Positions 2,679 to 43,462 of a DNA stretch of 64,000 bases are shown here, in pieces (position 1 is the stretch's first letter; the number at the start of each line of letters is the position of its first letter). The stretch lies in contig JANWIO010000166.1 in NCBI GenBank assembly GCA_025449835.1, positions 18,967 through 82,966 of the forward strand, in the 5' to 3' direction. The DNA comes from Vampirovibrionales bacterium. Lineage in GTDB: Bacteria; Cyanobacteriota; Vampirovibrionia; Vampirovibrionales; JAGQHJ01. Under the pieces are notes generated by a model. It saw only the letters and a program-made list of their open reading frames with translations. It did no database searches and was not told the DNA's origin. A program made the translations under genes and the position numbers.

Positions 2679-3980
2679 TTAGGTGTTTTTCGAAGAAAAA
2701 GAAGGCGCTCGGCGGTACACAAAAATTCCTCGCACCGGCTCCATTTCTAAAAATTTCTGAACCTGCCCCATGGTTTCTTTTGAAATTTCACAATCTTTGG
2801 GCAAAATTAAAACCCCCTTCATGGTTTTTAAATCTCGTGAGAGAACCATCCCTGGCATCATATCCCGGGCATTAATTTCCACCTCAATGGCATCCTCATT
2901 GGCATGATTTCCCTCATTAATGTATTGCGTAAATGCCGTTACAATAGCTGGGTCAAATTCTTTTAAGGATCGCTCTTTTAAAAACCGCAGCACTTTTTCA
3001 GGGGTTGTGGTGGAGAAAACCGCTCTTTCGTTCATTGCTTTATCGTAGGCATCTACAACGGCAATAATACGAGAGCCCAACGGAATTTGCTCTCCTCTAA
3101 GTTTATCCGGGTAACCGTTTCCATCAAACCGTTCGTGGTGATGACGCACAATGACGGCCACCTCATTTAAATTGGCCATCATGCCAATAATAGACTCGCC
3201 TAACATCACGTGGCGACGAAGCAGCTCTTGTTCTGCCGGTTTTAAGAATGCATCTCGCTTGAGTAAAATTTCAACAGGGACGCCAATTTTTCCAATATCG
3301 TGAAGGGTTGCAGCAATCTCAACCTCAATCAGCTCTTCTCCTGATCGCCCCAATTGTTGCGCAACCGCCTTACACAATGTAGCAACTCGTTTGGAATGGC
3401 TCCCAATAATGGGACTATGCAATTCTGAGAGTTTTGCCATCACCTGAATCGAGCTGAGAAAGCTTTTCTGTAGGGCCTTATTGAGTAGCGAAATCTGCTG
3501 TGTACGCTCTACAACTTTGTCTTCCAGATTTTTATTTAAATCTTTCAATTCTAAATTTTGTTCTTGAGTCAACGCTTCCAAACGTTTATTTTCAGAAACC
3601 AGCTCATAATATCCCACGGCTTGACGCAAGGTCAGCCGCATATCTTCATCATCCCAAGGTTTGGTTAAAAATCGATAAACCGCCCCTTCATTAATGGCGC
3701 TAATCGCCGCCTGGGTGTCTGCATAGCCCGTTAATAAAATCCGAACCGTATCGGGAGACAAACGTCGAACCTCCGCTAAAAGCTGGGTTCCTTCCATGCC
3801 AGGCATCCGTTGGTCAGAAACCACCACGGCATAGTCTTGTTGAGATATCATCTTTAAAGCCTCTTCAGGTGAAGTGGTCGTCTCTATCTCAAAACTTTCA
3901 TGATGCAACAGACGTTTGAGTGCATTAAGAATATTAATCTCATCATCAATGAATAAAATCCGTTGCATCGTCATCCGCAA
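2679..3980 (-). CDS. Response regulator with REC receiver plus HD-GYP c-di-GMP phosphodiesterase domain (RpfG-like)
   Basis: N-terminal ILFIDDEINILNALKRLL receiver. HD motif HDIGKIGVP and canonical HHERFDGNGYP motif. Last gene of a tightly packed minus-strand operon. Confidence 0.85.
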   Translation of the reverse strand: MRMTMQRILFIDDEINILNALKRLLHHESFEIETTTSPEEALKMISQQDYAVVVSDQRMPGMEGTQLLAEVRRLSPDTVRILLTGYADTQAAISAINEGAVYRFLTKPWDDEDMRLTLRQAVGYYELVSENKRLEALTQEQNLELKDLNKNLEDKVVERTQQISLLNKALQKSFLSSIQVMAKLSELHSPIIGSHSKRVATLCKAVAQQLGRSGEELIEVEIAATLHDIGKIGVPVEILLKRDAFLKPAEQELLRRHVMLGESIIGMMANLNEVAVIVRHHHERFDGNGYPDKLRGEQIPLGSRIIAVVDAYDKAMNERAVFSTTTPEKVLRFLKERSLKEFDPAIVTAFTQYINEGNHANEDAIEVEINARDMMPGMVLSRDLKTMKGVLILPKDCEISKETMGQVQKFLEMEPVRGIFVYRRAPSFSSKNT

Positions 3981-3983
3981 TTA

Positions 3984-14659: not shown

Positions 14660-15529
14660 GTGCCGATAGTTGTAAATACCAATATTGCATCTTTAATTGC
14701 ACAACAAAATTTATCAGTGAATACCAATAACGTTAATGGTTCACTGGAAAAATTATCCTCCGGCTATAAAATCAATCATGCCTCTGACGATCCAGCAGGA
14801 TTAAGCATCTCAGAAACACTTAATAGCCAGATTTCCGGGATCCAAACAGCTTTGCAAAACGCCCAAGAGGGAAACAGCATTTTGCAAGTTGCAGAAGGAA
14901 CTTTAAGTGTTATCGGTGATAACCTCCAACGGATTCGAGAGCTAACCGTTGAAGCTGCTAACGATACCAACAGTAGCACTCAGCGGGCAGCCCTTGCCAG
15001 TGAAATTAAGGCTCGCTTAAATGACAACCAACGCATGGTTCAAGCGGCACAATTTAATGGCATTAATCTGCTAACGGGATCAGCCGTCAGTGCTCGCCTT
15101 CAAATTGGACCCGATGCAAGCATTGCCGACAATACCATTAACATTGCCAGTGTCCTCGCCACGGCCACAGCAACAGCCATTGGTATTCTGGGAGCTGCCA
15201 CTTCCACAAAATGGGGAACTATCGGCAGCATTAACATTACCAATGGTAGCGTTGCCAGAAGCTTCTTAGGTGAGATAGATAAAGCTATTCAAGCCATCTC
15301 TTCAAGACGCACATTGATTGGTGCTTACCAAAACCAGTTAAGCAGCGCCATCTCCAATTTACAGTTGGGTTCACAGAACCTGACCTCCTCAGAATCCAAT
15401 ATCCGAGATGTGGATGTTGCTGCAGAAAGCGCTAAATTAACCCAATCTCAAATCTTACAACAGGCATCCGTTAGTATCCTGACACAGGCCAATCAAACCC
15501 CCTCAATGGTTCTTAAACTACTACAGTAA
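14660..15529 (+). CDS. fliC: Flagellin (copy 1 of 6, 289 aa, GTG start), the most divergent paralog
   Basis: Conserved flagellin D0/D1 termini (MPIVVNTNIASL... and ...LQQASVSILTQANQTP..LKLLQ). AAGGAG SD 9 nt upstream. Confidence 0.9.
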   Translation: MPIVVNTNIASLIAQQNLSVNTNNVNGSLEKLSSGYKINHASDDPAGLSISETLNSQISGIQTALQNAQEGNSILQVAEGTLSVIGDNLQRIRELTVEAANDTNSSTQRAALASEIKARLNDNQRMVQAAQFNGINLLTGSAVSARLQIGPDASIADNTINIASVLATATATAIGILGAATSTKWGTIGSINITNGSVARSFLGEIDKAIQAISSRRTLIGAYQNQLSSAISNLQLGSQNLTSSESNIRDVDVAAESAKLTQSQILQQASVSILTQANQTPSMVLKLLQ

Positions 15530-15634
15530 CCCTTACATAACCATAAGGAAAGCCCCATGAATACAACCCCCTAAGTTATACCCGCTCCCTCCCATGAACC
15601 TGGTCCATGCCCCAAATCATCACTGAACCAGACT

Positions 15635-16075
15635 CATGTGAGGACCTCCAAAGTTTTCACATGACCCCAGTATCTGCCCACATTAAACCTCAACATTAAC
15701 CCTTCGTGGATGGATACCCAACTCAATAACACCTGTAAAACGCTTCTGTGCATTAGCGTGGCGACCATCAAATTAAAAATAAAGATGCTGTCGACACCAG
15801 CTTCATGACTCAGATACCACTTTACAGGCTCAAAGAACCTCTTTCATGACTGAAAAGGATGAAAGCCTGGGCGCTAAAACGCTCCCGGGATGGGGTTCCC
15901 TACAATAAAATACCGAAACCCTTATATGTGCCTGATTCAGGGTGCCTTGGGCATCATTTTTTGAATCAGCCCCATGTGAGGATTCTTCGGACCTCTCACA
16001 TGACCCGATGTAAAACCGAGTTCGTGCCACTTGGCATGGATGTTTAAACCCAAACCGTTTGAACCGGCTTTACAT
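15635..16075 (+). repeat. Structured intergenic region with two copies of a CATGTGAGGA...CACATGACCC hairpin motif and further inverted repeats
   Basis: Copy A 15635-15667 and copy B 15973-16006 share 10-nt flanks that form 7-8 bp stems. Adjacent inverted repeats CTGATTCA/TGAATCAG (15933-15970) and GATGTAAA/TTTACATC (16007-16075). Confidence 0.5.
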
Positions 16076-16271
16076 CAAATTCATCAAGAATAAACCCCAT
16101 GTCTTATTTGGCATGAATGGATTAGAAATAAAGTTTTGTCTCTATTTCTACCCAGATCAAGCCTTTATAAGGCATTTTGAAAGAACCAACCTAACTCATA
16201 ATACACAACACGTTTGGAAAAACGCCACTTGACAAGGATGGAAAGTGAGAAAAAGCAAAAGGAGTTGAACT

Positions 16272-17114
16272 ATGCCACTCGTTATTAATACAAACGTAAA
16301 TTCATTAAATGCCCAACGGCTCTTGTCACAAAACACGATGAATCTGTCTAAAGATTTAGAGCAATTGGCCTCTGGTTATCGGATTAACCATGCCAGCGAT
16401 GATGCCGCAGGATTACAGATTTCTGAAAATTTTACTGCCCAAATCCGAGGCACTGAACAAGCCATTAACAATGCACAAGATGGCCTTAACCTCTTGTCTG
16501 TTGCAGAAGGTACCTTGAGCGTTGTGGCAAACAACCTGCAACGGATCCGGGAGCTCGCTGTGGAAGCTGCCAACGATGTGAACGGTTCAACCCAAAGATC
16601 TGCTATTAAGCAAGAAATTGATGCCCGAATCGCCGATATCAACCGAATGACCAAAGCAACACAATTTAACGGTGTCAATGTTCTTCAAAAGATCCCTAAT
16701 GTCAGCCTTAGACTACAGGTGGGTGCCAATGGTGTTGCATCACAAGACACCATCAATATCGCTTCTGCACTGGGAAGTGCAACCGCTACGGGACTTGGCC
16801 TTACAGCCACAGCCAATATGATTTCATCTAACAGTAATGCTCGGGCATTTTTGGCCAATGTAGATAGTGCTATGAATAACCTATCCAGCAGAAGAGCGGT
16901 AATCGGTTCATTCCAAAACCGATTACAAAGCGCTATTGATAACTTACAAATTGAAGATCAAAACTTCCAAGCTTCTGAATCTCAAATTAGAGACGTGAAT
17001 GTGGCCAAAGTTACGGCCGATCTTTCTAAAAACCAGATTTTACAACAAGCCTCTGTCAGCATCTTGGCGCAAGCAAATCAATTGCCGGCTCTGGCACTTA
17101 AATTAATCGGGTAA
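16272..17114 (+). CDS. fliC: Flagellin (copy 2 of 6, 280 aa)
   Basis: Flagellin N- and C-terminal helices. About 93% aa identity to copy 3 with many synonymous nucleotide differences. Confidence 0.9.
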   Translation: MPLVINTNVNSLNAQRLLSQNTMNLSKDLEQLASGYRINHASDDAAGLQISENFTAQIRGTEQAINNAQDGLNLLSVAEGTLSVVANNLQRIRELAVEAANDVNGSTQRSAIKQEIDARIADINRMTKATQFNGVNVLQKIPNVSLRLQVGANGVASQDTINIASALGSATATGLGLTATANMISSNSNARAFLANVDSAMNNLSSRRAVIGSFQNRLQSAIDNLQIEDQNFQASESQIRDVNVAKVTADLSKNQILQQASVSILAQANQLPALALKLIG

Positions 17115-17137
17115 GCCTGTTGTTTACCCATTTTTTA
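17109..17137 (+). terminator. Probable intrinsic terminator of flagellin 2
   Basis: GGGTAA-gcctgttgt-TTACCC followed by ATTTTTT; overlaps the stop codon. Confidence 0.55.
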
Positions 17138-17284
17138 TACCCAATCACTTACATAACTTAGAAAGGAGAAACAGATAAGACCTAAAATCACCTCATTTAC
17201 ATTACAGTACGTTACTTGTGTTTAACAAAAATACCTCATTATTAACAAGGATGGAAATAATAAGAAAGCAAAAGGAGTTGTACT

Positions 17285-18127
17285 ATGCCACTCGTTATTA
17301 ATACCAATGTCAATTCATTAAACGCTCAGCGACTCTTGTCGCAAAACACCATGAATCTCTCCAAAGACCTAGAGCAATTAGCCTCTGGTTATCGTATTAA
17401 CCATGCCGGTGATGACGCCGCAGGTCTCCAGATTTCTGAAAATTTTACTGCCCAAATCAAAGGGACAGAGCAAGCCATTAACAACGCACAGGATGGCCTT
17501 AACCTCTTGTCTGTTGCTGAAGGCACCCTAAGTGTTGTTCAGGATAACCTCCAGCGGATCCGCGAGCTAACTGTACAAGCGGCTAACGATGTTAACGGCT
17601 CCTCTCAAAGAACCGCTATTAAGCAAGAAATTGATGCCCGAATCGCCGACATCAACCGAATGACCAAAGCCACACAGTTTAACGGTGTCAATATTCTTAA
17701 AAGCATTGCAAATGTGAGTTTTCGCCTGCAAGTTGGTGCCAATGGTGTTGCATCCCAGGATACCATCAACATTGCATCAGCCTTGGGTAGTGCAACAGCC
17801 ACGGGGCTTGGATTAAAGGCAACGACCAATATGATTTCATCCAACAGCAATGCCCGTGCTTTTTTAGCCAATGTGGATAGTGCCATGAATAACCTATCCA
17901 GCAGAAGAGCGGTTATCGGTTCATTCCAAAACCGACTGCAAAGTGCCGTGAGTAACTTACAAATTGCAGATCAAAACTTCCAGGCCTCTGAATCTCAGAT
18001 CAGAGACGTTAATGTGGCCAAAGTTACTGCCGATCTCTCTAAAAACCAGATTCTGCAACAAGCTTCTGTCAGTATCTTGGCACAAGCAAACCAATTGCCG
18101 GCTTTGGCACTCAAACTTATCGGCTAA
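17285..18127 (+). CDS. fliC: Flagellin (copy 3 of 6, 280 aa)
   Basis: Flagellin termini. Leader shares the AAGGATGGAAA...AAGGAG motif with copy 2. Confidence 0.9.
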   Translation: MPLVINTNVNSLNAQRLLSQNTMNLSKDLEQLASGYRINHAGDDAAGLQISENFTAQIKGTEQAINNAQDGLNLLSVAEGTLSVVQDNLQRIRELTVQAANDVNGSSQRTAIKQEIDARIADINRMTKATQFNGVNILKSIANVSFRLQVGANGVASQDTINIASALGSATATGLGLKATTNMISSNSNARAFLANVDSAMNNLSSRRAVIGSFQNRLQSAVSNLQIADQNFQASESQIRDVNVAKVTADLSKNQILQQASVSILAQANQLPALALKLIG

Positions 18128-18317
18128 TTATCGAGCTCATTTGGCTTAAAACGCCTGTCGATAAATTTATTCTCACCTCATCAATGAGAAAAAAACAACA
18201 AAGGAGAATCTCCCTAATGACTTAAAACAATAATCCATCTGATTGAAACCTCTCACGTGTGGTGCAATCAGCCACTTACTTAAATTTGAATCAGGAAATA
18301 ACAGTAGGAGAAAAACT

Positions 18318-19157
18318 ATGCCACTGGTTATTAATACGAATACTAACTCATTAAACGCACAGCGGCTCTTGTCACAAAACACCATGAATCTCTCCAAAGA
18401 CTTAGAGCAGTTGGCCTCCGGTTATCGAATCAATCACGCATCGGACGACGCGGCAGGGCTACAAATCTCCCAGAATTTGCAGTCTCAATACCGTGGTATT
18501 GAGCAGGCCGTTCGAAACTCACAAGATGGACTTAACCTCTTGTCTGTTGCTGAAGGCACCTTGAGTGTTGTTCAAGATAACCTCCAGCGGATACGAGAAC
18601 TCGCTGTACAAGCAGCCAACGATGTTAACGGTACATCTCAAAGAACCGCTATTAAACAAGAGATAGATGCTCGAATTGCTGACATTAATCGAATGACCAA
18701 AGCCACGCAATTTAACGGTGTTAATATCCTTCAAAGCATCAAAGGCAGCTTCAATCTTGAAGTGGGTGCCAATGGTGCAGCATCCACAAATACCATTAAC
18801 ATTGCTTCAGCACTAGGTAGTGCAACAGCCACAGGGCTTGGACTAAAGGCAACCACCAATATGATTGCCGCCAACAGTAATGCTAGAGCCTTTTTAGGAA
18901 ATGTTGATTCAGCCATTGCAAATGTGTCAACAAGACGTGCAACCATTGGTTCATTCCAAAACCGGCTGCAAAGTGCTATTGCAAACTTACAAATTGCAGA
19001 TCAAAACTTCCAAGCTTCTGCGTCTCAAATTAGAGATGTGAATGTGGCTGCAGTCACTGCGGATCTGTCTCGAAATCAGATTCTGCAGCAGGCTTCCGTC
19101 AGCATTCTGTCTCAAGCAAATCAACTACCGGCCTTAGCACTCAAACTTATCGGATAA
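18318..19157 (+). CDS. fliC: Flagellin (copy 4 of 6, 279 aa); start corrected to ATG 18318
   Basis: MPLVINTN start preceded by a TAGGAG SD. The extra 25 codons of track ORF 18243 lack an RBS and break the paralog alignment. Confidence 0.9.
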   Translation: MPLVINTNTNSLNAQRLLSQNTMNLSKDLEQLASGYRINHASDDAAGLQISQNLQSQYRGIEQAVRNSQDGLNLLSVAEGTLSVVQDNLQRIRELAVQAANDVNGTSQRTAIKQEIDARIADINRMTKATQFNGVNILQSIKGSFNLEVGANGAASTNTINIASALGSATATGLGLKATTNMIAANSNARAFLGNVDSAIANVSTRRATIGSFQNRLQSAIANLQIADQNFQASASQIRDVNVAAVTADLSRNQILQQASVSILSQANQLPALALKLIG

Positions 19158-19315
19158 AAATATACACAAACAATCTTTAATAACAAAATAACCTGAAAGG
19201 AGGCTGATTATCCCGGAAAAATAGAACTCTTAGATTATCTAAATCCACACTTTACAAAACACAAACACTTTTTTTTGGAAGGAAAAGTGAAAAAACAACA
19301 TAAAGGAGTTAAATT

Positions 19316-20155
19316 ATGCCACTTGTTATTAATACAAACGTAAACTCGTTAAATGCACAGCGGCTCTTGTCACAAAACACCATGAATCTCTCCAAAGACT
19401 TAGAGCAGTTGGCCTCCGGTTATCGAATCAACCACGCATCTGACGACGCAGCCGGGCTACAAATCTCCCAGAATCTGCAGTCTCAATACCGTGGTGTCGA
19501 GCAGGCCGTTCGAAACTCACAAGACGGGTTAAACCTCTTGTCTGTTGCTGAAGGTACCCTGAGTGTCGTTCAAGATAACCTCCAGCGGATCAGAGAGCTT
19601 GCTGTACAGGCGGCCAACGATGTGAACGGTACATCTCAAAGAACTGCTATTAAGCAAGAGATGGATGCCCGGATTGCTGACATCAACCGAATGACCAAAG
19701 CAACGCAATTTAACGGTGTTAATATCCTTCAAAGCATCAAAGGAAGCTTTAACATTCAAGTTGGTGCCAATGGTGCAGCATCCACAAACTCCATTAACAT
19801 TGCGTCTGCACTGGGTAGCGCAACAGCCACAGGCCTTGGCTTAAAGGCAACCGCAAATATGATTGCCGCCAACAGTAATGCCAGATCCTTTTTATCCAAT
19901 ATCGATACAGCCATTGCAAACGTCTCAACAAGACGTGCAACCATTGGTTCGTTTCAAAACCGGCTACAAAGTGCTATTGCAAACCTACAAATTGCTGACC
20001 AAAACTACCAAGCTTCTGCATCTCAAATTCGAGATGTGAACGTGGCTTCAGTCACTGCGGATCTGTCTCGAAACCAGATTCTGCAGCAGGCTTCCGTCAG
20101 CATTCTGTCTCAAGCAAATCAACTACCGGCCTTAGCACTCAAACTCATTGGTTAA
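19316..20155 (+). CDS. fliC: Flagellin (copy 5 of 6, 279 aa)
   Basis: Near-identical to copy 4, including a ~78-nt identical tract near the 5' end. Confidence 0.9.
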   Translation: MPLVINTNVNSLNAQRLLSQNTMNLSKDLEQLASGYRINHASDDAAGLQISQNLQSQYRGVEQAVRNSQDGLNLLSVAEGTLSVVQDNLQRIRELAVQAANDVNGTSQRTAIKQEMDARIADINRMTKATQFNGVNILQSIKGSFNIQVGANGAASTNSINIASALGSATATGLGLKATANMIAANSNARSFLSNIDTAIANVSTRRATIGSFQNRLQSAIANLQIADQNYQASASQIRDVNVASVTADLSRNQILQQASVSILSQANQLPALALKLIG

Positions 20156-20180
20156 TCATCTATAACCAGTGCTTAAGCCT

Positions 20181-20212
20181 GCAGGAGACCCTTTTGGGGT
20201 CTCCTGTTTTTT
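20181..20212 (+). terminator. Strong rho-independent terminator after flagellin 5
   Basis: CAGGAGACCC-tttt-GGGGTCTCCTG followed by TTTTTT. Confidence 0.85.
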
Positions 20213-20501
20213 CACGCATTTCCATCTTCCTTCTTTACAACCCTTTGTTTTTAAAATTTAAACATAGATTGTAACAGATTGTTTCAATTTCCACTGAATG
20301 ATTTATGTTTCCGATGACCCTGTCGAAATCACATCAGGGACACCTCAAAAATGTTCCCACCCCAAGGGCACATCCCTGTAAAAGCACCTACCATAGAATT
20401 ATATGATGCAGCTTTAGGCTAACTCGGCTGGGTTAGAATGGCTTTTGCAGTGCGTTTCCTTAGGGTTCATGGATGAAATAATATTGTAAGGAGACAATAC
20501 T

Positions 20502-21341
20502 ATGTCACTAGTCGTGAATACAAACATTTCTTCTTTGAACGCTCAAAGAAACCTTGCTAATAACACAATGAGCCTTAACCGATCGTTAGAGCGGTTATCC
20601 TCCGGTTTACAGATTAACCATGCTTCTGATAACGCTGCAGGGTTACAAATTTCTCAAAATTTGCAAGCCCAAGTTAATGGTGTCAACCAAGCAGTTTCCA
20701 ATGCACAGGATGGCAACAATCTTCTGTCTGTTGCTGAGGGTACCTTGAGTGTTGTTCAAGATAACCTCCAACGGATTCGGGAATTGACTGTGCAAGCCGC
20801 CAACGATGTAAACGGTACATCTCAAAGAACTGCTATTAAGCAAGAGATCGATTCCCGGATTGCTGACATCAACCGAATGACCAAAGCGACCCAATTTAAT
20901 GGTATCAATATCCTTCAAAGCATCAAAGGAAGCTTTAACATTCAAGTTGGTGCCAATGGTGCAGCATCCACAAACTCCATTAACATTGCTTCAGCACTGG
21001 GTAGCGCAACAGCCACGGGGCTTGGGTTAAAAGCAACCACCAATATGGTTGCTGCAAATAGTAATGCTAGGGCCTTTTTGGCCAATGTGGATACGGCCAT
21101 TTCAGCTGTCTCAACCCGAAGAGCAACGATCGGTTCTTATCAAAACCGGTTACAAAGTGCTATCAGTAACTTACAGATTACGTCTCAAAATTTCGCTGCT
21201 TCTGAATCTCAAATCAGAGACGTGAATGTCGCTTCAGAAACGGCAAACTTAACCCGTTCTCAAATTCTGCAGCAAGCTTCTGTAAGCATCTTGGCACAAG
21301 CAAACCAATCATCAGCTCTGGCACTCAAACTCATCGGTTAG
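20502..21341 (+). CDS. fliC: Flagellin (copy 6 of 6, 279 aa), mosaic: divergent N-terminus, central block identical to copy 5
   Basis: MSLVVNTNISSLNAQR... N-terminus. A ~63-nt block (20927-20989) is identical to 19741-19803 of copy 5. Confidence 0.9.
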   Translation: MSLVVNTNISSLNAQRNLANNTMSLNRSLERLSSGLQINHASDNAAGLQISQNLQAQVNGVNQAVSNAQDGNNLLSVAEGTLSVVQDNLQRIRELTVQAANDVNGTSQRTAIKQEIDSRIADINRMTKATQFNGINILQSIKGSFNIQVGANGAASTNSINIASALGSATATGLGLKATTNMVAANSNARAFLANVDTAISAVSTRRATIGSYQNRLQSAISNLQITSQNFAASESQIRDVNVASETANLTRSQILQQASVSILAQANQSSALALKLIG

Positions 21342-29823: not shown

Positions 29824-32643
29824 ATGGCTTCAAACAATCTGTTTTTTATCCAACCCCACATTGTAGAGCGGTTAATCCGCCATGAATTTGTTGCCAAACG
29901 GCAGCAGAGTAAAGCTTATCGCATGCATGATAGACGCAATACCCTTTCACCCCTTAATGTTACCCGTCGGGCGATTCGCTATGAACCGTTGGTTTTCACC
30001 AATCGCCACGAAGAACTGGTTGATTGTATACAAACGCTTAATAGCCCAGACACCAAATTGCTTCTCATTTCTGGACCGCCTGGACGTGGTAAAACCAGCT
30101 TTATCCGAGCCCTTTCTGAAATGATGGATGGCAGCAAGGCACAACTTCTTTGGTTCGATGTCTCTAAACATACCGATTTTGATGAGGTAGTCCGATTTTT
30201 GGTCGAATATCTCACCTACATCTGCCGAAGTTTAGAGGAAACTCCGAAAGATGTTCCCAAAGATTCGGATCCTATTGAAATATTGGAACAGCTGTTAAAT
30301 CAAACGGCCAATTTTCCCATTTTAATTGCCATTGATAACATCGAGCATCTCGTCACACCCGATCAAACGGTTCGTTCTAGAGAACTCAAAGAAGCCTTTA
30401 ACTTTTTACTCTCCTTTCCCAACGTCAAACTCATTCTCTCAGGCAAAACCCTACCCCTATCGGATATGAACCCGGCTGCCGAAGCCGTTTACCATTTACC
30501 CTTAGAGCCCTTCAACACGATACAAAGTGAGGCTTTGGTAAAACAGCTTTTTCACCATGACGCAACAAAATCTCAAAACATCACAGAACTGGTCCCTTTT
30601 TTTCACGGCGAACCCTACCTCCTCTTTTTGTTCGCCACGCTTTTTGAGCGTCATGCGAACACGCCTTTATGGTTTGAAACCCTTAGCCAAGCCCCTGATA
30701 ATCCAGAAAAAGTGTTGCTTTCCTTTCTGTACCCCCACCTTTCTGATATCGAGAAAAAGGTTTTAAGAATTTTAGCACTCATTCGCCATGGGGCAACCCC
30801 TTCTGGGCTTCAAGTAATTGTTCGCTACTGTAATCCCACCTTAAAAACCTTTGATTTTAAGCAAATAAACAAATCAATACTCCGGCTTCTCTTTAAAAAA
30901 GTATATCCCCCGCAAATGGTATTGGAAAAGTTAAGACACCGACCAGAAAACCATGGAGAGAATGATACCATTGAAGCGTATTATCAACTTTTTGAATTGG
31001 TGCAAGAAGATATCGTTCAAACGATCCCAGAAGAAGAACGGATTCAAACCCATGAACGTCTGCATCAGTTTTATCTCGCCGAAAAAAATAAGCATATTAT
31101 CGACCGAATTTACCAGACCCGCACCCTACATCTTGCCGCAGAGGCCCAATATCACTTTACCCACAGCAAACGGCGTAGATCCTCGCCAGTTTCTTCAGAG
31201 CCTTTTACCCTTGATTCCATTCATCCTCAGGCAAGTGATGGAATGAGTACACCTGAGCGCTACCTATACATGCAGCACACTGCCCCCCAGCATTTTAGTG
31301 AACTGTCTTCAGAAAAAAGTATTCCGTGGCCCAACTTGGAGACATCAGAAGAGGATGAAGTTTCAGGGGCATATGAAATCACCCAGTCCGTTGGCAGCAG
31401 CCACAAAAAAGGGAAATCGGATTCTGTATCCTCCACCGTCCCCATCTCCATCCAAATTGAGCCTTCTGCCACTTTAAACACCCCAACCGTAAGGCTTACC
31501 GATGAAGATTTAGAGAAATTGGCCCAATTGATTACACGAACAAGCCATCATACTTCATCATCTACCAATCCTTATATACAATCCCACCTAGAACTCCCTC
31601 TTGATACAAAGCCAGAAGCGGTTTTTGATATACCAGAAGCGGAAACGGAAATTTTATCGGATTTAGAAGAAGCGCCTTCCCTAGATCTCGAAGAGCAGGA
31701 AATTCAAAACCGGTTAAGTTACGCGATTACCCAACATGATCGCAAGAAAATTGCAGAAGAACTCCTTCAACTTGGCCGATATCGGATCCAAAAAGGGCTT
31801 TCTGAAAATGGGGAAGCTTGCTTAATCAAAGCCTTAGAGTATGCCGAAGACATCTCTGATACCATCCTACAAGCGGCTATTTATAGTACTTTAGGACATT
31901 CTTATCGAGAACATTTCCAGCACAACAAAGCCTTACGGCATTTAAGAGAGGTAGAACACCTTTATGAAAAGGGCAATAAAAGCGCAAAAGAGCAAGAAGT
32001 TTTGCCTCAGACCTATTGGGACATGGCTGAAATTTATTTTTACCGTAAAGAACTCGAAAAAGCACAATATTTTTATAAAAAAAGCTTGTCGTTTCAGACC
32101 ATTGATACCCCTTTTAAAGCAGAAGTGCTCTTTCGGTTAGCCTTAACATTGGATGATTCCGGAGAAATCGACGAAGCAACCCGTTATTATCGGCAAAGTT
32201 TTGAAGTTAGCTCAGCAATTCATGATAATTATACGTGCGCGGCAACATTGTATAACCTGGCCAGCCTTTATTTCGAACATGCTCAGTTTGAAGAAGCCAA
32301 GAAAACCCTACAAGAGTGTTTGGTTTATGATAAACAAAACGGAATTGAAAAAGACATTCTGCGATCCTTGATCCAACTTTCCAAGATTTGTGAAGCCCAA
32401 CACATACTCCCAGATGCAAAACAATACGCCACTGAGGCCTATGAATTTGCAAAAGGTGCTTCTAATAAAACCAATTTAGCGTCTGTTTGCTTGCACCTAG
32501 GGCATTTGGCCGAAACTGCTCAATCCTGGGAAGAAGCTGCTCGATATTATCAACAAGCTGAATCGGCAGCAAGTGAATTATCAGAAGAAAGCCGCCAACG
32601 GATCCGTCAAAAACAAGAAGCCTTAAAGGATTATCTCTCATGA
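29824..32643 (+). CDS. Large (939 aa) STAND-like P-loop NTPase with an acidic/Ser-rich linker and C-terminal TPR repeats
   Basis: Walker A LLLISGPPGRGKTSF near residue 85 and Walker B-like ILIAIDNIEHL. Residues ~430-640 are low-complexity and acidic. The C-terminal ~300 aa contain multiple TPR-like repeats. TGA stop overlaps the pyrE start. Confidence 0.6.
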   Translation: MASNNLFFIQPHIVERLIRHEFVAKRQQSKAYRMHDRRNTLSPLNVTRRAIRYEPLVFTNRHEELVDCIQTLNSPDTKLLLISGPPGRGKTSFIRALSEMMDGSKAQLLWFDVSKHTDFDEVVRFLVEYLTYICRSLEETPKDVPKDSDPIEILEQLLNQTANFPILIAIDNIEHLVTPDQTVRSRELKEAFNFLLSFPNVKLILSGKTLPLSDMNPAAEAVYHLPLEPFNTIQSEALVKQLFHHDATKSQNITELVPFFHGEPYLLFLFATLFERHANTPLWFETLSQAPDNPEKVLLSFLYPHLSDIEKKVLRILALIRHGATPSGLQVIVRYCNPTLKTFDFKQINKSILRLLFKKVYPPQMVLEKLRHRPENHGENDTIEAYYQLFELVQEDIVQTIPEEERIQTHERLHQFYLAEKNKHIIDRIYQTRTLHLAAEAQYHFTHSKRRRSSPVSSEPFTLDSIHPQASDGMSTPERYLYMQHTAPQHFSELSSEKSIPWPNLETSEEDEVSGAYEITQSVGSSHKKGKSDSVSSTVPISIQIEPSATLNTPTVRLTDEDLEKLAQLITRTSHHTSSSTNPYIQSHLELPLDTKPEAVFDIPEAETEILSDLEEAPSLDLEEQEIQNRLSYAITQHDRKKIAEELLQLGRYRIQKGLSENGEACLIKALEYAEDISDTILQAAIYSTLGHSYREHFQHNKALRHLREVEHLYEKGNKSAKEQEVLPQTYWDMAEIYFYRKELEKAQYFYKKSLSFQTIDTPFKAEVLFRLALTLDDSGEIDEATRYYRQSFEVSSAIHDNYTCAATLYNLASLYFEHAQFEEAKKTLQECLVYDKQNGIEKDILRSLIQLSKICEAQHILPDAKQYATEAYEFAKGASNKTNLASVCLHLGHLAETAQSWEEAARYYQQAESAASELSEESRQRIRQKQEALKDYLS

Positions 32644-37315: not shown

Positions 37316-39961
37316 TTAATCGAGATCCGAAATTTCATTGAAGTGATAAAGCTGGTTAAAATATTGGTGTAATAGCCCTTCTTCTCGGCTCGGTTTCTCT
37401 TTTTGCAGGCTTTCTAAATAGTCTCGAATGGTCACAGATTCAGCAATGTTGCTCAAAGCCCGCTGAATCTCTTTTTCAGGCACTTTTAAATTCCGATCCA
37501 TACAGAGAATTCGAGCCAAATCTTTGAGGCTGGCTTCTAAGAAGGTATCCACCACATCGCCATCAAAATGGCGTTCTGATTCCAACCGAAGGATCTTCAT
37601 CACCCGATCAAAGGGCATTCTGCTTCGATACTGACGCTTTGAGGTGATAGCGTCAAAAACATCAGCAACGGCTAATATTCTGCCGCCTAAGGGAATATGT
37701 TCCCCCTTCAGATTACGAAAATAGCCGCTACCATCAATTTTTTCATGGTGCGCCGCTGCAATATCGGGAATATCGGCCAAATGCTTTTCAAAATGAATGT
37801 TTTTCAAAATGTCATGGGTGTACTGCACGTGTTGTTGGATATGCCGGTATTCATTTTCGGTTAAACGGCCCTCTTTCACCAAAACCTCTTCTTTTACCCC
37901 AATTTTACCAATGTCATGAAGCAAAGCAGCATATCTTAAGGCTTCCATCTCTTGATCTGAAAGATGCATTTTCTCACCAATCAAGACGGCATATTCCATC
38001 ACCCTTTCTGAGTGGCCTGCTGTAATCGGGTCTCTGGCATCAATAGTGGTTGAAAGGGTTTTCACAAAGCTTTCAAAGGTTACTTTCAATTCTCGATAAA
38101 GTTGTGCATTTTCAAGGGCAATCCCTGCACTAGAGGCAATGGCCACCAGCAGCTCTTCATCACTACGTCCAAAGATGGCGTTTTTCTTGTTCAACACCTG
38201 AAAAACCCCAATAATGTCTCCTTTTCGGTTCCGCATTGGCAGGCATAGCATACTTGTGGTTTTATAACCGGTTTGGCGATCCACTTCCGGATTAAATCGG
38301 GGGTCTTCGTAAGCATTTTGAACATTCAAGATCTCGCCAGTTTTGACCACATAGCCTGCAAGACCCTGATGCGCCGGAAAGCGGATTTCTTCGGTTTTAT
38401 CCAATCCAGATGCCAGCCGAGACCAAAGCTCATTGGTTTCGGCATCATATAAAAATACCGTACAACGATCGGCATGAAGGGCTCGCTCGGTTTCTTCCCG
38501 AATGAGTTGTAACAATTTATCCAAATCACGCTCGGCTGCCATGGCTTGCCCCACTTTCAGCAATGACACCAAGAAGGGAAGGCCCTGACCATGCATATGT
38601 TCTAATGCCGCATCCGGTTGTTCGGAATCTCGACTTTCCATGAGCTCCGTTAAGGCCTCCAGCAGAGAATGGCGTTTTTCAAAAATCCGCTCGTGCTTGG
38701 TTCGTTTATTAACAATCTCCTCCCAAGGAATCTCGTGGGTTCTAAAAATCTCATCTTCAATATAGGGCATCAGGTAGAACAAGCCATTTTCCTCAGCCAT
38801 CCGCAAGGCATCTAAAAAGCTGGCCAAGGCAAGTTTTTCGTTTCCGATCTCCTGATAAAATTTACCCAGCTCAAAATGCGATTTTGCAACCTCATCAATC
38901 ATATGCTCCCAACGAAACAGTTCAATGGCCTCACCAATCAGCTCAACGGGCTTTGTTGTATTCTGGGGATCAATGGCAAACTCTACCCAAGCCTGTAACC
39001 GTTTGGACATGGCCAGGCCCTTCTTAAACTGTAGTTTTTGAAAAACGGGCAATACCTCTTTTTCCAGCACTTTCATGGCTTTTTCAAATTCCCGACGGCG
39101 ATAGAGTAAATACACCTCATAAAAGCACGTCATACTATATTGAATTTTAAGATGGCGATTTTTACATTCCTGCCGAGCCTCTTCGATTAAAGTGACTGCT
39201 TCATCCTCTTTACCGCAACGTAAAAATAGACGAATCAACTCGTTTTTCAAAGAAGCTTTTCGTTTTTCATCTTTTAAAGCCGCACAAATCTCTAATGAAC
39301 GCTGCAAATGTTGGTACGCCAGTTCAAAATCTTCGTACAGCAAATGAAGTCGGCCTAAAATTTGGCACGTCACAGCAATTTCATGAATGGGCTCTTTGAG
39401 GTGAGTTTTAATGAGAAGCGCCGATTTTAGGTATCGAATCGCCCGATGAAAATCACCCGTCCGCTCATAATGCACCCCCAGGCTATCATAAAGCTTTGCG
39501 GCTTCAAGCCCTTGGGGATCACAAAAAGTGAGGCCCTGTTTAAAATATTTCAAAGCCGGTCCAAATTGCTCTGCCTGATAAAGCAGTAACCCTCGATAGT
39601 GCAAAAGCCTGGATCGGGCTTCATTCATGCCGGTTAAGGAGCCATGGGTCTCTAAAAGCCCTTCGGCATCTCGAAACATTTTTTCGCTCCTGGCCCGCTC
39701 TTGGGTTGAGCCATACAACCAAGCCAATTCAATCATGGCACAAGTAATCCCCAGGACATTTTTCTGTTGTTGAAAAAGACGAAACGCCTTTTCAACAACA
39801 TCAGTGGCTTGGGGAATCTCTTTTTTAAACCGAAGCACCATGCCTTTTTGTAACGCTTCGGTTGCAGCACCAGGAGGTAAAGCACCTTGCCCTTGTAACG
39901 CAATATTCTGGCTATCTGAAGAATCAATAAACGTGCTCATATCAAAAGGGATCTTTTTCAC
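37316..39961 (-). CDS. Large TPR-GAF-HD-GYP-type c-di-GMP phosphodiesterase-like protein (variant HHEKIDGSGYF motif)
   Basis: N-terminal TPR-like repeats, a central GAF region, and C-terminal HDIGKIGV plus HHEKIDGSGYF (GYF instead of GYP). Confidence 0.8.
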   Translation of the reverse strand: MKKIPFDMSTFIDSSDSQNIALQGQGALPPGAATEALQKGMVLRFKKEIPQATDVVEKAFRLFQQQKNVLGITCAMIELAWLYGSTQERARSEKMFRDAEGLLETHGSLTGMNEARSRLLHYRGLLLYQAEQFGPALKYFKQGLTFCDPQGLEAAKLYDSLGVHYERTGDFHRAIRYLKSALLIKTHLKEPIHEIAVTCQILGRLHLLYEDFELAYQHLQRSLEICAALKDEKRKASLKNELIRLFLRCGKEDEAVTLIEEARQECKNRHLKIQYSMTCFYEVYLLYRRREFEKAMKVLEKEVLPVFQKLQFKKGLAMSKRLQAWVEFAIDPQNTTKPVELIGEAIELFRWEHMIDEVAKSHFELGKFYQEIGNEKLALASFLDALRMAEENGLFYLMPYIEDEIFRTHEIPWEEIVNKRTKHERIFEKRHSLLEALTELMESRDSEQPDAALEHMHGQGLPFLVSLLKVGQAMAAERDLDKLLQLIREETERALHADRCTVFLYDAETNELWSRLASGLDKTEEIRFPAHQGLAGYVVKTGEILNVQNAYEDPRFNPEVDRQTGYKTTSMLCLPMRNRKGDIIGVFQVLNKKNAIFGRSDEELLVAIASSAGIALENAQLYRELKVTFESFVKTLSTTIDARDPITAGHSERVMEYAVLIGEKMHLSDQEMEALRYAALLHDIGKIGVKEEVLVKEGRLTENEYRHIQQHVQYTHDILKNIHFEKHLADIPDIAAAHHEKIDGSGYFRNLKGEHIPLGGRILAVADVFDAITSKRQYRSRMPFDRVMKILRLESERHFDGDVVDTFLEASLKDLARILCMDRNLKVPEKEIQRALSNIAESVTIRDYLESLQKEKPSREEGLLHQYFNQLYHFNEISDLD

Positions 39962-40051
39962 TCCTTATTTTCATTATCGATCAGATGTCATAAAAATTGA
40001 GTTGATAAAAGTCTTTGCATAAAATCAATCCCTGATTTTCTCAACCCAACA

Positions 40052-41674
40052 ATGGCCCCAAAAGGTCTAAAACAAGATTTCTCCAGATACAAAAAAGCGC
40101 CCTGTAAAAATATCCTCCAATGCCATTATTTCCATTATAATGGTGTGCAGGGTACTGCTAGAAAGATAAAACGATTGTCTTCACCAAATCAAACTGATAA
40201 TAAGGTTCTTCTCATCAGCACACAAAAGAGCCTGATTCAAAAAATATCGGCCCTGATGACCTCTGATTTTCAAGAGTTGGCTCTGGAAATTGCTGAAGCA
40301 GGGAGCAATGGCCTCACTCAAATTTATCATCACCCCCCTCGCTTGATTATTGTGGATAGCACTTTGCCCGATATCAGCGGATTGCAGATTTGTCGGGTTT
40401 TAAAGCATGATCCAGCCCTCCGCAAGCTACCCCTCATGCTTATTACCAAAGCCTTAAAAAAAGAATATGACAGATTGGGTGAACTGACCCTGATTGCAGA
40501 CGCCTTTTTGGAAGAGAAAAAAATCAACACGGCTTTTTGTACGGAAATCAAAATGCTCCTGAACCTGTTTAAGGGACTTGATGCTTCAGAACAACAACAA
40601 ATTCGACTCCTGCAACAAGACGCCGTACAGGTTGAACCCTTAAATCGGTTGGTTCAGCTCCTTGATCAATCCATTACAGAAACCACTTTAATGAATGCCT
40701 TCCAAAAGCTTTTCGACCTCGCCCCCTCAAAAAATATTCTGCATCATATGCTTTTTAGCCTCATGGAAACTGTTTTGGATTACGACGCAGCTGGGATTTT
40801 CTTTAACGATAAAACACGGGATACCCGTTTAATCACGTATCATCTGACCGATCAGGTGGCAATGAAAGATCAACAACTCCAAGAGTGGACAGACCAGGTT
40901 TTTGAGGAGCTCAAAAAGCAATCAAACGATCCTGCTCTGGAAATTCGTCCCTATCGCTATGAAACCATCTCTTCCAACATTTCTCCCGATACACCTGTAA
41001 AAACATCTAGCCTCAAACATCATTATCTTTACCCCTTTTTCATCGAAAACACCCTTGTTGGCGCCGTTGTCTTCTTAAATAAACAAAAAGTCAATTACGA
41101 TATCATCTTTCCCTTTTCTTTGCTGCTCCAGGAAATAAGCACTTTAATGCGGCTAAGGCATTACTATACAGAAGCGGAGATGCTCTCTATCTCCGACCCG
41201 TTAACAGGACTTTATACACACCAGCATTTTAGCTGGTCTCTTGATCGGGAGGTTCGCCAATCCAAACGGCATCAAACGCCCCTCACCCTGGTGATGATCA
41301 GCATCAATGATTTCCGGGAATTAAATACCCAGTGGGGTCATGCAATGGGAGATGAAGCGGTTAAGACCTTAGCACAACATGTGCAACAGAATGTTAGAAG
41401 CATTGACTACCTAGCACGTGCAGGAGGACGCAGCATTTTGGGGCTGTTCCCGAATACCTCTGCAAAAGATACCATGCATGCCCTCAAACGAATCCAAAAG
41501 TGGGTTTCAAGCAATCCGCTGACCTGGAAAGATTCAAAAATCTCTTTCAATTTAAGTATTGGCCTTGTAGAACTCAATGATTCCATCAATAACGCTTCAG
41601 AATTTATTGCCGCTGCAGAATCTGCAGTGGAGAATGCACGACAAAAAGGGGATAATATCGTTAAACACGTTTAG
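40052..41674 (+). CDS. Pseudo-receiver plus degenerate GGDEF protein (GGRSI in place of GGEEF, RxxD I-site retained); likely a c-di-GMP receptor rather than a cyclase
   Basis: Receiver-like region lacks the N-terminal acidic pair (KVLLISTQKS). GGDEF fold (DPLTGLYTHQHF...GHAMGDEAV...RSIDYLARAGGRSILGLFP). Confidence 0.75.
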   Translation: MAPKGLKQDFSRYKKAPCKNILQCHYFHYNGVQGTARKIKRLSSPNQTDNKVLLISTQKSLIQKISALMTSDFQELALEIAEAGSNGLTQIYHHPPRLIIVDSTLPDISGLQICRVLKHDPALRKLPLMLITKALKKEYDRLGELTLIADAFLEEKKINTAFCTEIKMLLNLFKGLDASEQQQIRLLQQDAVQVEPLNRLVQLLDQSITETTLMNAFQKLFDLAPSKNILHHMLFSLMETVLDYDAAGIFFNDKTRDTRLITYHLTDQVAMKDQQLQEWTDQVFEELKKQSNDPALEIRPYRYETISSNISPDTPVKTSSLKHHYLYPFFIENTLVGAVVFLNKQKVNYDIIFPFSLLLQEISTLMRLRHYYTEAEMLSISDPLTGLYTHQHFSWSLDREVRQSKRHQTPLTLVMISINDFRELNTQWGHAMGDEAVKTLAQHVQQNVRSIDYLARAGGRSILGLFPNTSAKDTMHALKRIQKWVSSNPLTWKDSKISFNLSIGLVELNDSINNASEFIAAAESAVENARQKGDNIVKHV

Positions 41675-41704: not shown

Positions 41705-42829
41705 ATGGTACTTTTCCAAATAATGACCAATACACAGCCACAACTTTCAACCCAATTGAGTGAAGATGTTCAAGATATTCTTCACTACGCCAAAAAGGCC
41801 GCTGCAAAAGATAAAAGCGCTGTGGTGACCGATCGCTATTTTCTAGCGGGCCTCTCCGAAATCAACCGGCTTTTTACCCATCTGGATGCCCTGCTCAAAA
41901 CTGCTGGGGTTCCACCCAAGAAGCTCTTTCAAGCTTATAAGGTAAACCAAAAAGGCTTTCAAGATTATCATGAGCCTGAAACGATTACGGCAAAGGCAAC
42001 GCAATTTGCATTAGAGGCTGCTTCAAAAGAAGAAACACCCCCTAAAAAAGTAAAAGTACAGATAGAGCATGTCTTGTTTGCACTTTCTGATTCACCGGAC
42101 CCATGCGTGAAAGCGGTTTTATCCCAAGCCGGACTCAATCGAGAGAAGCTTGAAAAAGCCATTCCTCAGGTGGAAGCAAAATCGCCGCTTCGGATTGTTT
42201 TTTATTGCATTCGTGAAACCTTAGAAGTTGTTGCAGTTGTCATTTTTTTATTGATTGTGATTAAGCAGGGGTTTGGGGAGTTTCGACTCATTCCCTCCGA
42301 ATCTATGCTACCCACATTGCATGTGGGTGATCGATTGGCAGTTGAAAAGGTATCCCATTGGTTTCGCCCCATCCATCGTGGCGATATCATGGTATTTTAT
42401 CCACCCCCACCCGAATCAACCCTGCCGCATGATCCGTGGAATGTGTTTCTTCGGTTAACAGGTTTTTCAGGCATTGTTTACAACAAAGACAGCCGGATTG
42501 ATACCGCTTACATCAAGCGAGTTATTGGGTTACCGGGAGATACACTTGAGGTAAAACCAGGCCAAGGCGTTTTTATTGATGGGCATCTTTTAAAAGAGCC
42601 TTATAAAACTGGGGTTTCCCAAATTTGTACCTTTATTGATTATTGCGGCCCCATCCAAGTGCCGCCTCATAGCTATTTCATGATGGGAGACAACAGAAAT
42701 CACAGTGCAGACAGTAGGTATTGGGGATTTATGCCTGAGAACCGTGTCATTGGCCGCGCAATTTTTCGGTTTTATCCATTCGACAATCGTATGGGCGTTT
42801 TTCAGACACCGCATTATTCTGTAAAATGA
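41705..42829 (+). CDS. lepB: Signal peptidase I with a ~160-aa cytoplasmic N-terminal extension resembling two Clp-N-type repeats
   Basis: SPase I boxes (IPSESMLPTL Ser, YIKRVIGLPGD Lys, GDNRNHSADSRYWG). Single TM. N-terminal repeats VTDRYFLAGLSEINRL and IEHVLFALSDSPD. Confidence 0.8.
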   Translation: MVLFQIMTNTQPQLSTQLSEDVQDILHYAKKAAAKDKSAVVTDRYFLAGLSEINRLFTHLDALLKTAGVPPKKLFQAYKVNQKGFQDYHEPETITAKATQFALEAASKEETPPKKVKVQIEHVLFALSDSPDPCVKAVLSQAGLNREKLEKAIPQVEAKSPLRIVFYCIRETLEVVAVVIFLLIVIKQGFGEFRLIPSESMLPTLHVGDRLAVEKVSHWFRPIHRGDIMVFYPPPPESTLPHDPWNVFLRLTGFSGIVYNKDSRIDTAYIKRVIGLPGDTLEVKPGQGVFIDGHLLKEPYKTGVSQICTFIDYCGPIQVPPHSYFMMGDNRNHSADSRYWGFMPENRVIGRAIFRFYPFDNRMGVFQTPHYSVK

Positions 42830-42946: not shown

Positions 42947-43462
42947 TTGTCAATGATTGAATTATTTGTAATGGGAATTGCCCTGGACACAAGGACAGGC
43001 ACCCCAATTGTTGTTTTAAATGATGCTGAAAACCGTCGAGCGCTCCCCATCTGGATTGGAACGGCAGAAGCCAGCGCAATTATTCGGCAACTGGAAAACA
43101 TTAAGTCCGCCCGCCCAATGACCCACGACTTAATGTTTAATATGCTCACCCAGTTGGGTTATCGCGTAACCCGCATTGAAATTAATGATCTGAATTCTGA
43201 TACCTACTACGCCAGCATTTATATTGAGGATCCGGCTGGTACAGAAAGTATTGTTGATTCTCGTCCCTCTGATGCAATTGCCTTGGCACTAAGGGCAGAG
43301 GCTACCATTTTTGCAACCGCCAATGTGGTTGCAGATGGCACAATTTCCACTGATCAAGCCCGTGATGAAGCTGAAGCAGAGGAGTTTCGCGAGTTTATTC
43401 AAGATATTAAGCCGTCTGATTTTAAATTTCGCTTTGGCGACGATATTGAATCCAATCAATAA
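42947..43462 (+). CDS. Bifunctional nuclease family (BFN/DUF151) protein
   Basis: PIVVLNDAENRRALPIWIGTAEASAI...RPMTHDLMFNML matches the DUF151 core. Confidence 0.7.
   Translation: MSMIELFVMGIALDTRTGTPIVVLNDAENRRALPIWIGTAEASAIIRQLENIKSARPMTHDLMFNMLTQLGYRVTRIEINDLNSDTYYASIYIEDPAGTESIVDSRPSDAIALALRAEATIFATANVVADGTISTDQARDEAEAEEFREFIQDIKPSDFKFRFGDDIESNQ

Follow-up and report, generated by a model that had tools for sequence, protein, structure and literature searches.

The 64,000-nucleotide stretch of Vampirovibrionales DNA analyzed here (hereafter the window) carries a divergent pair of signaling genes, one coding for an 881-residue TPR-GAF-HD-GYP protein whose signature tripeptide reads GYF, and the other for a 540-residue protein joining a receiver (REC) domain to a degenerate GGDEF domain. 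With a probability of roughly 55%, the two form a lineage-conserved cyclic di-GMP (c-di-GMP) locus of the Vampirovibrionales, in which a probably active phosphodiesterase is encoded beside an I-site receptor derived from a dead cyclase. A divergent pair had been noted within 37316-41674 in a preliminary description of this DNA, and both open reading frames lie there as divergent neighbors, with the following features:

37316..39961, minus strand: TPR-GAF-HD-GY(F) gene, an 881-residue open reading frame from GTG (the database copy, P0028, has 874 residues and starts at Met8)
38762..39859, minus strand: N-terminal TPR region, residues ~35-400 (Pfam TPR_12, TPR_2, TPR_MalT and others)
38114..38527, minus strand: GAF domain, residues 479-616 (Pfam GAF, 5.6e-22; PDB matches to the CyaB2 and PDE5/PDE2 GAF domains; motif present in 62/66 orthologues)
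37553..38059, minus strand: HD-GYP-type catalytic domain, residues 635-803 (Pfam HD_5, 3.2e-39; PmGH, 4mcw, E 1.5e-78)
37718..37750, minus strand: HHEKIDGSGYF motif, with the GYF tripeptide at 37718-37726
39962..40174, no strand: divergent intergenic/promoter region, whose extent hinges on the true start codons
40052..41674, plus strand: pseudo-receiver-GAF-degenerate GGDEF gene, a 540-residue open reading frame (probable start TTG 40175, giving 499 residues)
40202..40513, plus strand: pseudo-receiver domain, residues 51-154 (acidic pair replaced by S-T and K105 by E; D and T kept)
40637..41116, plus strand: GAF-fold middle domain, residues ~196-355 (DYD and IFPF motifs invariant)
41189..41656, plus strand: degenerate GGDEF domain, residues 380-535 (Pfam GGDEF, 8.3e-32; PleD alignment)
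41396..41407, plus strand: I-site RSID (R449-D452), equivalent to PleD R359-D362 and invariant in the family
41423..41437, plus strand: degenerate A-site GGRSI, residues 458-462, equivalent to PleD GGEEF and variable within the family

The GGDEF protein has the PleD family as its best NCBIfam model, and its receiver scores 29.3 bits against Pfam Response_reg, just under the cut-off of 30.2. Residue equivalences were drawn from phmmer comparisons with PDB sequences, which place residues 369-537 on PleD 279-449 without a gap through the catalytic core. The segment RSIDYLARAGGRSI, encoded at 41396-41437 on the plus strand, aligns gaplessly to PleD RAIDLPCRYGGEEF, so that RSID corresponds to R359-D362 and GGRSI to GGEEF with identical spacing (RSID-YLARA-GGRSI versus RAID-LPCRY-GGEEF), RxxD standing exactly five residues upstream of the degenerate A-site; the earlier placement of RSID at the I-site position is thus borne out. 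The I-site is complete: PleD R359-A-I-D362 is represented by R449-S-I-D452 and R390 (the equivalent of PelD R402) by R480, and R366 is kept, as are the guanine-recognition residues N335 and D344. The prediction that GGRSI is catalytically dead gains from further losses, as the metal ligand D327 is replaced by Ser and the phosphate-binding residues K442 and R446 by Arg and Asp; the protein accordingly lacks the GG[D/E]EF A-site, the metal Asp and the K442/R446 pair of active cyclases. In the receiver, PleD D9-D10 reads S-T, in agreement with the acidic pair having been described as absent, and K105 is Glu; the phospho-acceptor Asp (D102) and T83 are kept. The residue set of a phosphorylatable receiver is therefore incomplete, and the receiver fold itself is supported. 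Taken together, the protein is predicted to be neither a phosphorylation-activated regulator nor a cyclase. Two other types of GGDEF domain were considered and rejected: the Hypr-GGDEF, a cyclic GMP-AMP (cGAMP) synthase, as the D344 position is Asp and the GGDEF motif is missing, and the GdpP/YybT-like ATPase GGDEF, as the protein has no GGDEF_GdpP match.

An AlphaFold2 model of the GGDEF protein built with 15 homologues (mean predicted local distance difference test score 79.8) places a receiver fold at 51-154 and an alpha/beta domain at ~196-355, from which a long helix leads to the GGDEF fold; residues 1-46 are disordered. The middle domain, a GAF fold sitting between the receiver and the GGDEF domain, was overlooked in the preliminary description; it has neither a Pfam nor a PDB sequence match, and a Foldseek search with the full-length model, dominated by GGDEF and REC matches, was uninformative about it. 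All orthologues (465-523 residues) lack the first ~41-46 residues of the open reading frame, which the model also leaves disordered; the true start is thus probably not the annotated one but, further downstream, the in-frame TTG at 40175—this codon is preceded by a purine-rich AGAAAG and yields a 499-residue product that begins like the orthologues, of which the one at locus L001 also starts at TTG.

A look-up of the exact sequence of the GGDEF protein gave no record. A word-indexed search recovered only 15 close full-length relatives of it (41-57% identity), in whose alignment R449, D452, R456 and R480 are invariant, and the A-site pentapeptide is different in almost every member (GGRSI, GTRTI, GGSKI, GGGKV, GGRKI, GSRSV, GGKKI, KGLTV, SGRRI, GTTGI). 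The wider family was obtained by a full hidden Markov model search of 1.84 billion representatives, re-aligned and tabulated, and falls into three tiers. The first is the close family. In the second, which is broader, the receivers are degenerate (HP, HH, YP, etc., for DD, with a variable acceptor position) and so are most of the A-sites (SGDEL, TGKEL, DRKTL, NRDDM and others, with a few GGEEL). The third is made up of canonical cyclases, REC(DD, D, T, K)-GAF-like-GGEEF. When 36 relatives with degenerate A-sites are compared with 60 canonical ones, the catalytic columns D327, K332, E371 and K442 drop from 98-100% conservation in the canonical set to 22-50% in the degenerate set, whereas in the latter the Arg and Asp of RxxD and the equivalent of PleD R390 are 100% conserved and the equivalent of R366 is 97% conserved. 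Only nine columns of the GGDEF domain are conserved at 95% or more in the degenerate set (D382, E400, R406, R449, D452, R456, T469, R480 and G533), four of which correspond to PleD R359, D362, R366 and R390. Such selective retention would be expected were the I-site the part on which selection acts, as in CdgA of Bdellovibrio; it supports the I-site being the functional part of the protein and is the strongest evidence to that effect here. The closest relatives of the protein are canonical REC-GAF-GGEEF response-regulator cyclases. The nearest of them (L004, 3391-10573; 28% identity, REC-GAF-GGDEF with all catalytic residues) is part of a chemotaxis-like cluster that also encodes an MCP, a CheA-CheY hybrid and a double-CheW protein; the arrangement is Wsp-like and may point to the setting from which the family arose.

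Turning to the divergent neighbor, Pfam matches to several TPR families, GAF and HD_5 (PF13487, covering profile positions 2-170 of 170), together with the motif encoded at 37718-37750 on the minus strand, agree with the TPR-GAF-HD-GYP architecture and the HHEKIDGSGYF motif first ascribed to it. The GAF domain bears an NKx(n)Fx3DE motif, NKKNAIFGRSDE, which is a feature of the cyclic-nucleotide-type GAF domains of PDE2/5/6 and CyaB1/2; its similarity to the CyaB2/PDE2/5 group spans 1e-47 to 1e-32 (e.g., CyaB2 E 1.9e-47, PDE5 E 1.3e-35). The best PDB match of the protein is PmGH (4mcw), itself an active enzyme, over GAF and HD-GYP (45%-type similarity), with HHEKIDGSGYF aligning to HHERWDGTGYP. 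Among 66 full-length orthologues (43-77% identity, Vampirovibrio chlorellavorus included) D183, H189, H221, D222, K225, H250, H276, H277, E278, D281, G284, Y285, I294, D305, D308 and R314 (PmGH numbering) are all invariant. K317 is Arg in 66/66, and Rxx(K/R) reads RQYR in the window protein; this is the c-di-GMP-type recognition motif, as against the RxxQ/N of cGAMP-specific enzymes (preprint 10.1101/600031). PmGH E185 is Ile in 66/66, a departure from the trinuclear (E/D-T-G) subfamily; as the loss of this carboxylate defines a second, presumably binuclear, HD-GYP subfamily (Bellini et al. 2014), the domain is placed in the binuclear subclass. In the HHExx[D/N]GxGYP motif the Gly and Tyr are kept and the Pro is replaced, this position never being Pro in the 66 orthologues (His 38, Phe 25, Trp 2, Tyr 1). 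The preliminary description had implied that GYF might weaken the phosphodiesterase, a suspicion that finds no support: the metal and substrate residues are invariant, and PmGH stays largely as active when G284A, Y285A or P286A is introduced (Bellini et al. 2014), so the enzyme is very probably catalytically competent, with c-di-GMP as its most likely substrate.

The replacement of this proline extends well beyond the orthologues. A domain-only query returned, among the 120 nearest HD-GYP domains, 49 with GYY, 46 with GYP, 21 with GYF, 3 with GYH and 1 with GYS, i.e., a swap in 74/120, one of the GYF proteins (P0263) being from Ignavibacteriales. A second HD-GYP protein in the window (RpfG type, 2679..3980, minus strand) keeps the canonical HHERFDGNGYP, indicating that the swap is family-specific. 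These distributions mark GYF as the shared signature of a clade and of a broad subfamily, and not as an individual lesion or an inactivation. No paper combining HD-GYP with GYF or GYY was found in a literature search, and the aromatic-for-proline subfamily hence appears to be undescribed; common in metagenomes, it would be missed by motif filters requiring GYP, and a published HD-GYP census used an HHExh[D/N]GxGYP motif check. Across 11 pairs, the replacing residue (F, H, W or Y) showed no correlation with the A-site sequence of the partner. Stand-alone short HD-GYP proteins (~200-330 residues; P0258-P0377) with GYY, GYF or GYH are abundant in metagenomes, and one such short protein (L011, 7794-8675, plus strand) is encoded directly 3' of a Vampirovibrionales TPR-GAF-HD-GYF orthologue.

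The nearest genomic relatives of the window are Vampirovibrionaceae/Vampirovibrionales metagenome-assembled genomes with 50-57% protein identity. An HD-GYx gene divergent from a pseudo-receiver-GAF-degenerate GGDEF gene, itself followed by a signal peptidase gene, is found at 7/11 Vampirovibrionales loci examined: the window, L001, L003, L006 (V. chlorellavorus), L010, L012 and L013, the GGDEF-then-signal-peptidase order being common to the latter six. In four additional pairs, the two genes lie on the same contig. The pair in the window is flanked by TatC on one side and, on the other, by signal peptidase I (41705..42829, plus strand, 30 nucleotides 3' of the GGDEF gene), a BFN (bifunctional nuclease) domain protein (42947..43462, plus strand, 3' of the peptidase in most syntenic loci), FNR and RecN. 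At L001 this entire neighborhood is syntenic (TatC, pair, signal peptidase, BFN, FNR, RecN); at L006 and L010 acetyl-CoA carboxylase genes stand in place of TatC, and the pair is still divergent. The V. chlorellavorus partner, at 33% identity, retains the divergent arrangement and reads RGID...YSSKSL, having also lost the acceptor Asp (to Gly), and that of L010 has GGKNL as its A-site. The L012 partner (3125-4717, minus strand), from a Cyanobacteria-labelled metagenome-assembled genome, keeps IDID (the PleD D327 equivalent), GGEEI and RVVD next to a degenerate receiver with EP for DD, and on these residues may still be an active cyclase. The likely history begins with paired genes for a phosphodiesterase and a cyclase; degeneration set in with the receiver and later, in several lineages, reached the A-site, and the I-site stayed.

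The GGDEF and signal peptidase genes form a probable operon. The peptidase gene is always 3' of the GGDEF gene, adjoins the phosphodiesterase gene where the GGDEF gene is missing (L007), and codes for an enzyme with intact SMLPT, KRVIG and GDNRxxSxDSR motifs. Its N-terminal cytoplasmic domain is Clp_N-like (Pfam Clp_N 6.4e-4; NCBIfam ClpB/ClpA N-terminal matches), an unusual architecture that recurs in L001, L012 and L013. In the divergent intergenic region, there is a sigma-70-like match on the plus strand (39997-40025), the number of such matches being not above chance expectation; promoter and terminator scans gave sites no more numerous than in shuffled sequence, and against Rfam neither the whole window (gathering thresholds) nor the intergenic region (E <= 1) matched a riboswitch or any other family of RNA.

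In the model that we favor, the first gene would code for a c-di-GMP phosphodiesterase, probably active, that belongs to the PmGH (GAF-HD-GYP) type and the binuclear subclass and is extended at its N terminus by a TPR array. Cyclic AMP (cAMP) or cyclic GMP (cGMP) at the GAF domain probably gates its hydrolysis, as suggested by the NKFDE motif and by PmGH and Tlr0485, and the TPR array would bring in a protein partner that also gates it. The second gene would code for a former REC-GAF-GGDEF response-regulator diguanylate cyclase. Having lost the acidic pair and Lys, it would no longer be normally phosphorylated, and with D327 and E370 gone as metal ligands, along with a phosphate-binding Arg, it would no longer make c-di-GMP; instead, it most likely binds c-di-GMP at the complete I-site (R449/D452/R480), probably as an intercalated dimer. 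By analogy with PleD, WspR, PelD and CdgA, binding would change its conformation or oligomeric state, and its output would pass through protein contacts of the pseudo-receiver and GAF domains. More speculatively, the phosphodiesterase may set a local c-di-GMP pool read by the neighboring receptor, which may in turn act on the co-transcribed signal peptidase as a possible target.

Several observations weigh against this model. The preliminary description had taken the pair for a sensor/effector module: what stands of this is the divergent synteny at 7/11 loci, its sole basis and suggestive of a functional link between the two genes, while at 4/11 phosphodiesterase loci the GGDEF neighbor is missing. 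At L007 no GGDEF gene intervenes and the phosphodiesterase gene directly faces that of the signal peptidase, and at L008, L009 and L011 the phosphodiesterase gene lies in unrelated contexts, so the adjacency may be gene order inherited within a single bacterial order. The RxxD motif is nearly universal among the canonical relatives too and represents the ancestral state, so its retention is partly inheritance, and the counts over the 36 degenerate relatives come from sequences that share ancestry and are not independent events. N335 and D344 are kept at 94% and 92% in the degenerate set, which makes another nucleotide-binding role possible, and neither an output domain nor a target is identifiable for the GGDEF protein. 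A possible, if somewhat doubtful, alternative builds on the first of these points: the two genes would be neighbors through inherited gene order only, each serving its own pathway, with the phosphodiesterase a general hydrolase of c-di-GMP (or pGpG) and the GGDEF protein encoded at the head of an operon that includes the peptidase and is related to secretion. The synteny of the whole L001 neighborhood and the four phosphodiesterase orthologues without an adjacent partner speak for it, as do a phosphodiesterase family far larger and better conserved than the close GGDEF family (66 members at 43-77% identity versus 15 at 41-57%) and the tight linkage of the GGDEF and peptidase genes (a 30-nucleotide gap in the window, a 4-nucleotide overlap in L012). 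However, the divergent pair survives both a complete change of one flank (acetyl-CoA carboxylase for TatC in V. chlorellavorus and L010) and the divergence of the partner to 33% identity.

The two remaining alternatives concern the proteins one at a time. That the phosphodiesterase-like protein has another substrate (pGpG or 3'3'-cGAMP), or mainly binds protein via its altered GYP loop, seems improbable. The missing E185 carboxylate places it in the binuclear subclass, for which a link to the handling of pGpG has been made. After PmGH, the cGAMP-specific V-cGAP3 is its best PDB match over the full domain, and no member of the aromatic subfamily was found in the searchable literature. Moreover, in RpfG from Xanthomonas, which binds GGDEF proteins, the GYP motif is reported as needed for these contacts rather than for catalysis; the work on this comes from one laboratory, an earlier RpfG paper of which was retracted. 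The invariance of the c-di-GMP-type Rxx(K/R), in place of the RxxQ/N of cGAMP-specific enzymes, and of all catalytic residues nonetheless argues for an enzyme acting on c-di-GMP. Quite improbable, in turn, is a GGDEF protein that is a nucleotide-independent scaffold or pseudo-enzyme, or that binds another ligand (GTP or another guanine nucleotide), with the I-site conserved for structural reasons. The persistence of the guanine-recognition residues N335 and D344 and the existence of GTP-sensing degenerate GGDEF domains such as CC3396 are in its favor, but D327 and E370 are lost as metal ligands, together with the residues that bind phosphate (K442 to Arg, R446 to Asp or variable), which argues against GTP-Mg binding, and R359, D362 and R390 lie on the PleD surface as the I-site, with no obvious structural reason for their invariance. 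An elaboration of the favored model, very improbable as it stands, would make the GY(F/H/Y) loop a docking surface in a complex of the phosphodiesterase with the dead cyclase, in which c-di-GMP at the I-site gates hydrolysis as a trigger-enzyme-like feedback, and this complex would control the co-transcribed Clp_N signal peptidase; if true, this would tie c-di-GMP to protein export during predation on algae.

Parallels might be struck with several known systems. PmGH from Persephonella marina (PDB 4MCW) shares with the window phosphodiesterase the GAF and HD-GYP domains over 343 aligned residues, along with 7/8 metal ligands, D183/K225, Y285, I294 and R314; it differs in lacking the ~460-residue TPR array and the NKFDE-type GAF motif and in having E185 rather than Ile and GYP rather than GYF. 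By sequence, the window protein is hence a PmGH-type GAF-HD-GYP member in all but the motif Pro and the third-metal carboxylate. Tlr0485 of Thermosynechococcus, a cAMP-dependent GAF-HD-GYP phosphodiesterase, offers a case of a GAF domain gating HD-GYP within the cyanobacterial phylum; the parallel drawn is one of architecture, and cyclic-nucleotide dependence, known for Tlr0485, is suggested for the window protein by the motif only. RpfG provides a precedent for physical contact between HD-GYP and GGDEF proteins, with the difference that the GYP loop of the window enzyme is altered.

For the GGDEF protein, the best sequence and fold matches are cyclases of the PleD/WspR/DgcR type and REC-GAF-GGEEF relatives (e.g., L004, P0127-P0145), which share the order of receiver, linker domain and GGDEF and the I-site formed by RxxD and R390; unlike them, the window protein lacks both metal ligands and the A-site, as well as the acidic pair and Lys of the receiver. 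In Bdellovibrio bacteriovorus, CdgA (Bd3125), with GVNEF and RxxD, is devoid of cyclase activity and binds c-di-GMP with an affinity of ~2 uM; it resembles the window protein in its degenerate GGDEF with RxxD five residues upstream and in its predatory host bacterium, but it has other N-terminal domains and is experimentally characterized. The preliminary description had anticipated a c-di-GMP receptor such as PopA or PelD. The receptor part is strengthened, short of proof, by the I-site conservation in the 36 relatives, whereas the protein is unrelated to either of the two. PopA of Caulobacter is reportedly a PleD-like REC-REC-GGDEF regulator that was turned into an I-site effector without normal phosphorylation, acting in RcdA/CtrA degradation. 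It would thus have followed the same evolutionary route from enzyme to receptor, with an independent origin, an architecture distinct from the REC-GAF-GGDEF of the window protein and a target (RcdA/CtrA) without a counterpart here. PelD of Pseudomonas aeruginosa (PDB 4DN0, 4ETZ), in which c-di-GMP is bound by a degenerate GGDEF domain via RxxD and a downstream Arg, has the same succession of GAF and degenerate GGDEF; it is membrane-anchored and belongs to the pel operon, whereas the window protein has a pseudo-receiver and is taken as soluble. No pel or exopolysaccharide genes lie beside the window GGDEF gene, and the PDB sequence matches at E <= 1e-5 do not include PelD. These relationships indicate descent of the window protein from REC-GAF-GGDEF response-regulator cyclases, making it an orthologue of neither PopA, PelD nor CdgA.

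Both proteins are known kinds of signaling protein and imply no new mechanism, and a specialist would not be surprised by either; it is the lineage that is new for the study of c-di-GMP, a literature search having found no paper that combines Vampirovibrio with c-di-GMP. The locus offers a defined and conserved entry point to c-di-GMP signaling in the Vampirovibrionia (Melainabacteria), non-photosynthetic relatives of the cyanobacteria, with a probable eraser bearing a cyclic-nucleotide-type sensor domain and a probable reader. The reader family further provides a natural series that starts at the active-looking GGEEI and ends in A-sites that are dead, beside an I-site that is invariant, and hence a clean comparative example of the passage from cyclase to receptor.

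Elsewhere in the window, the RpfG-type protein mentioned above belongs to a second c-di-GMP/two-component cluster (2679-6980, minus strand):

2679-3980, minus strand: RpfG-type REC-HD-GYP protein
3984-5204, minus strand: HDOD protein
5194-6006, minus strand: stand-alone receiver protein
6003-6980, minus strand: histidine kinase

Six tandem flagellin paralogues of 279-304 residues, each with Flagellin_N and Flagellin_C, occupy 14660-21341 on the plus strand; the array fits a motile organism and might be a target downstream of c-di-GMP control. Finally, a gene at 29824-32643 on the plus strand codes for a 939-residue STAND-type NTPase (AAA_22, NACHT, nSTAND6) with C-terminal TPR repeats, and a phosphoribosyltransferase-like gene follows it with a 4-nucleotide overlap.

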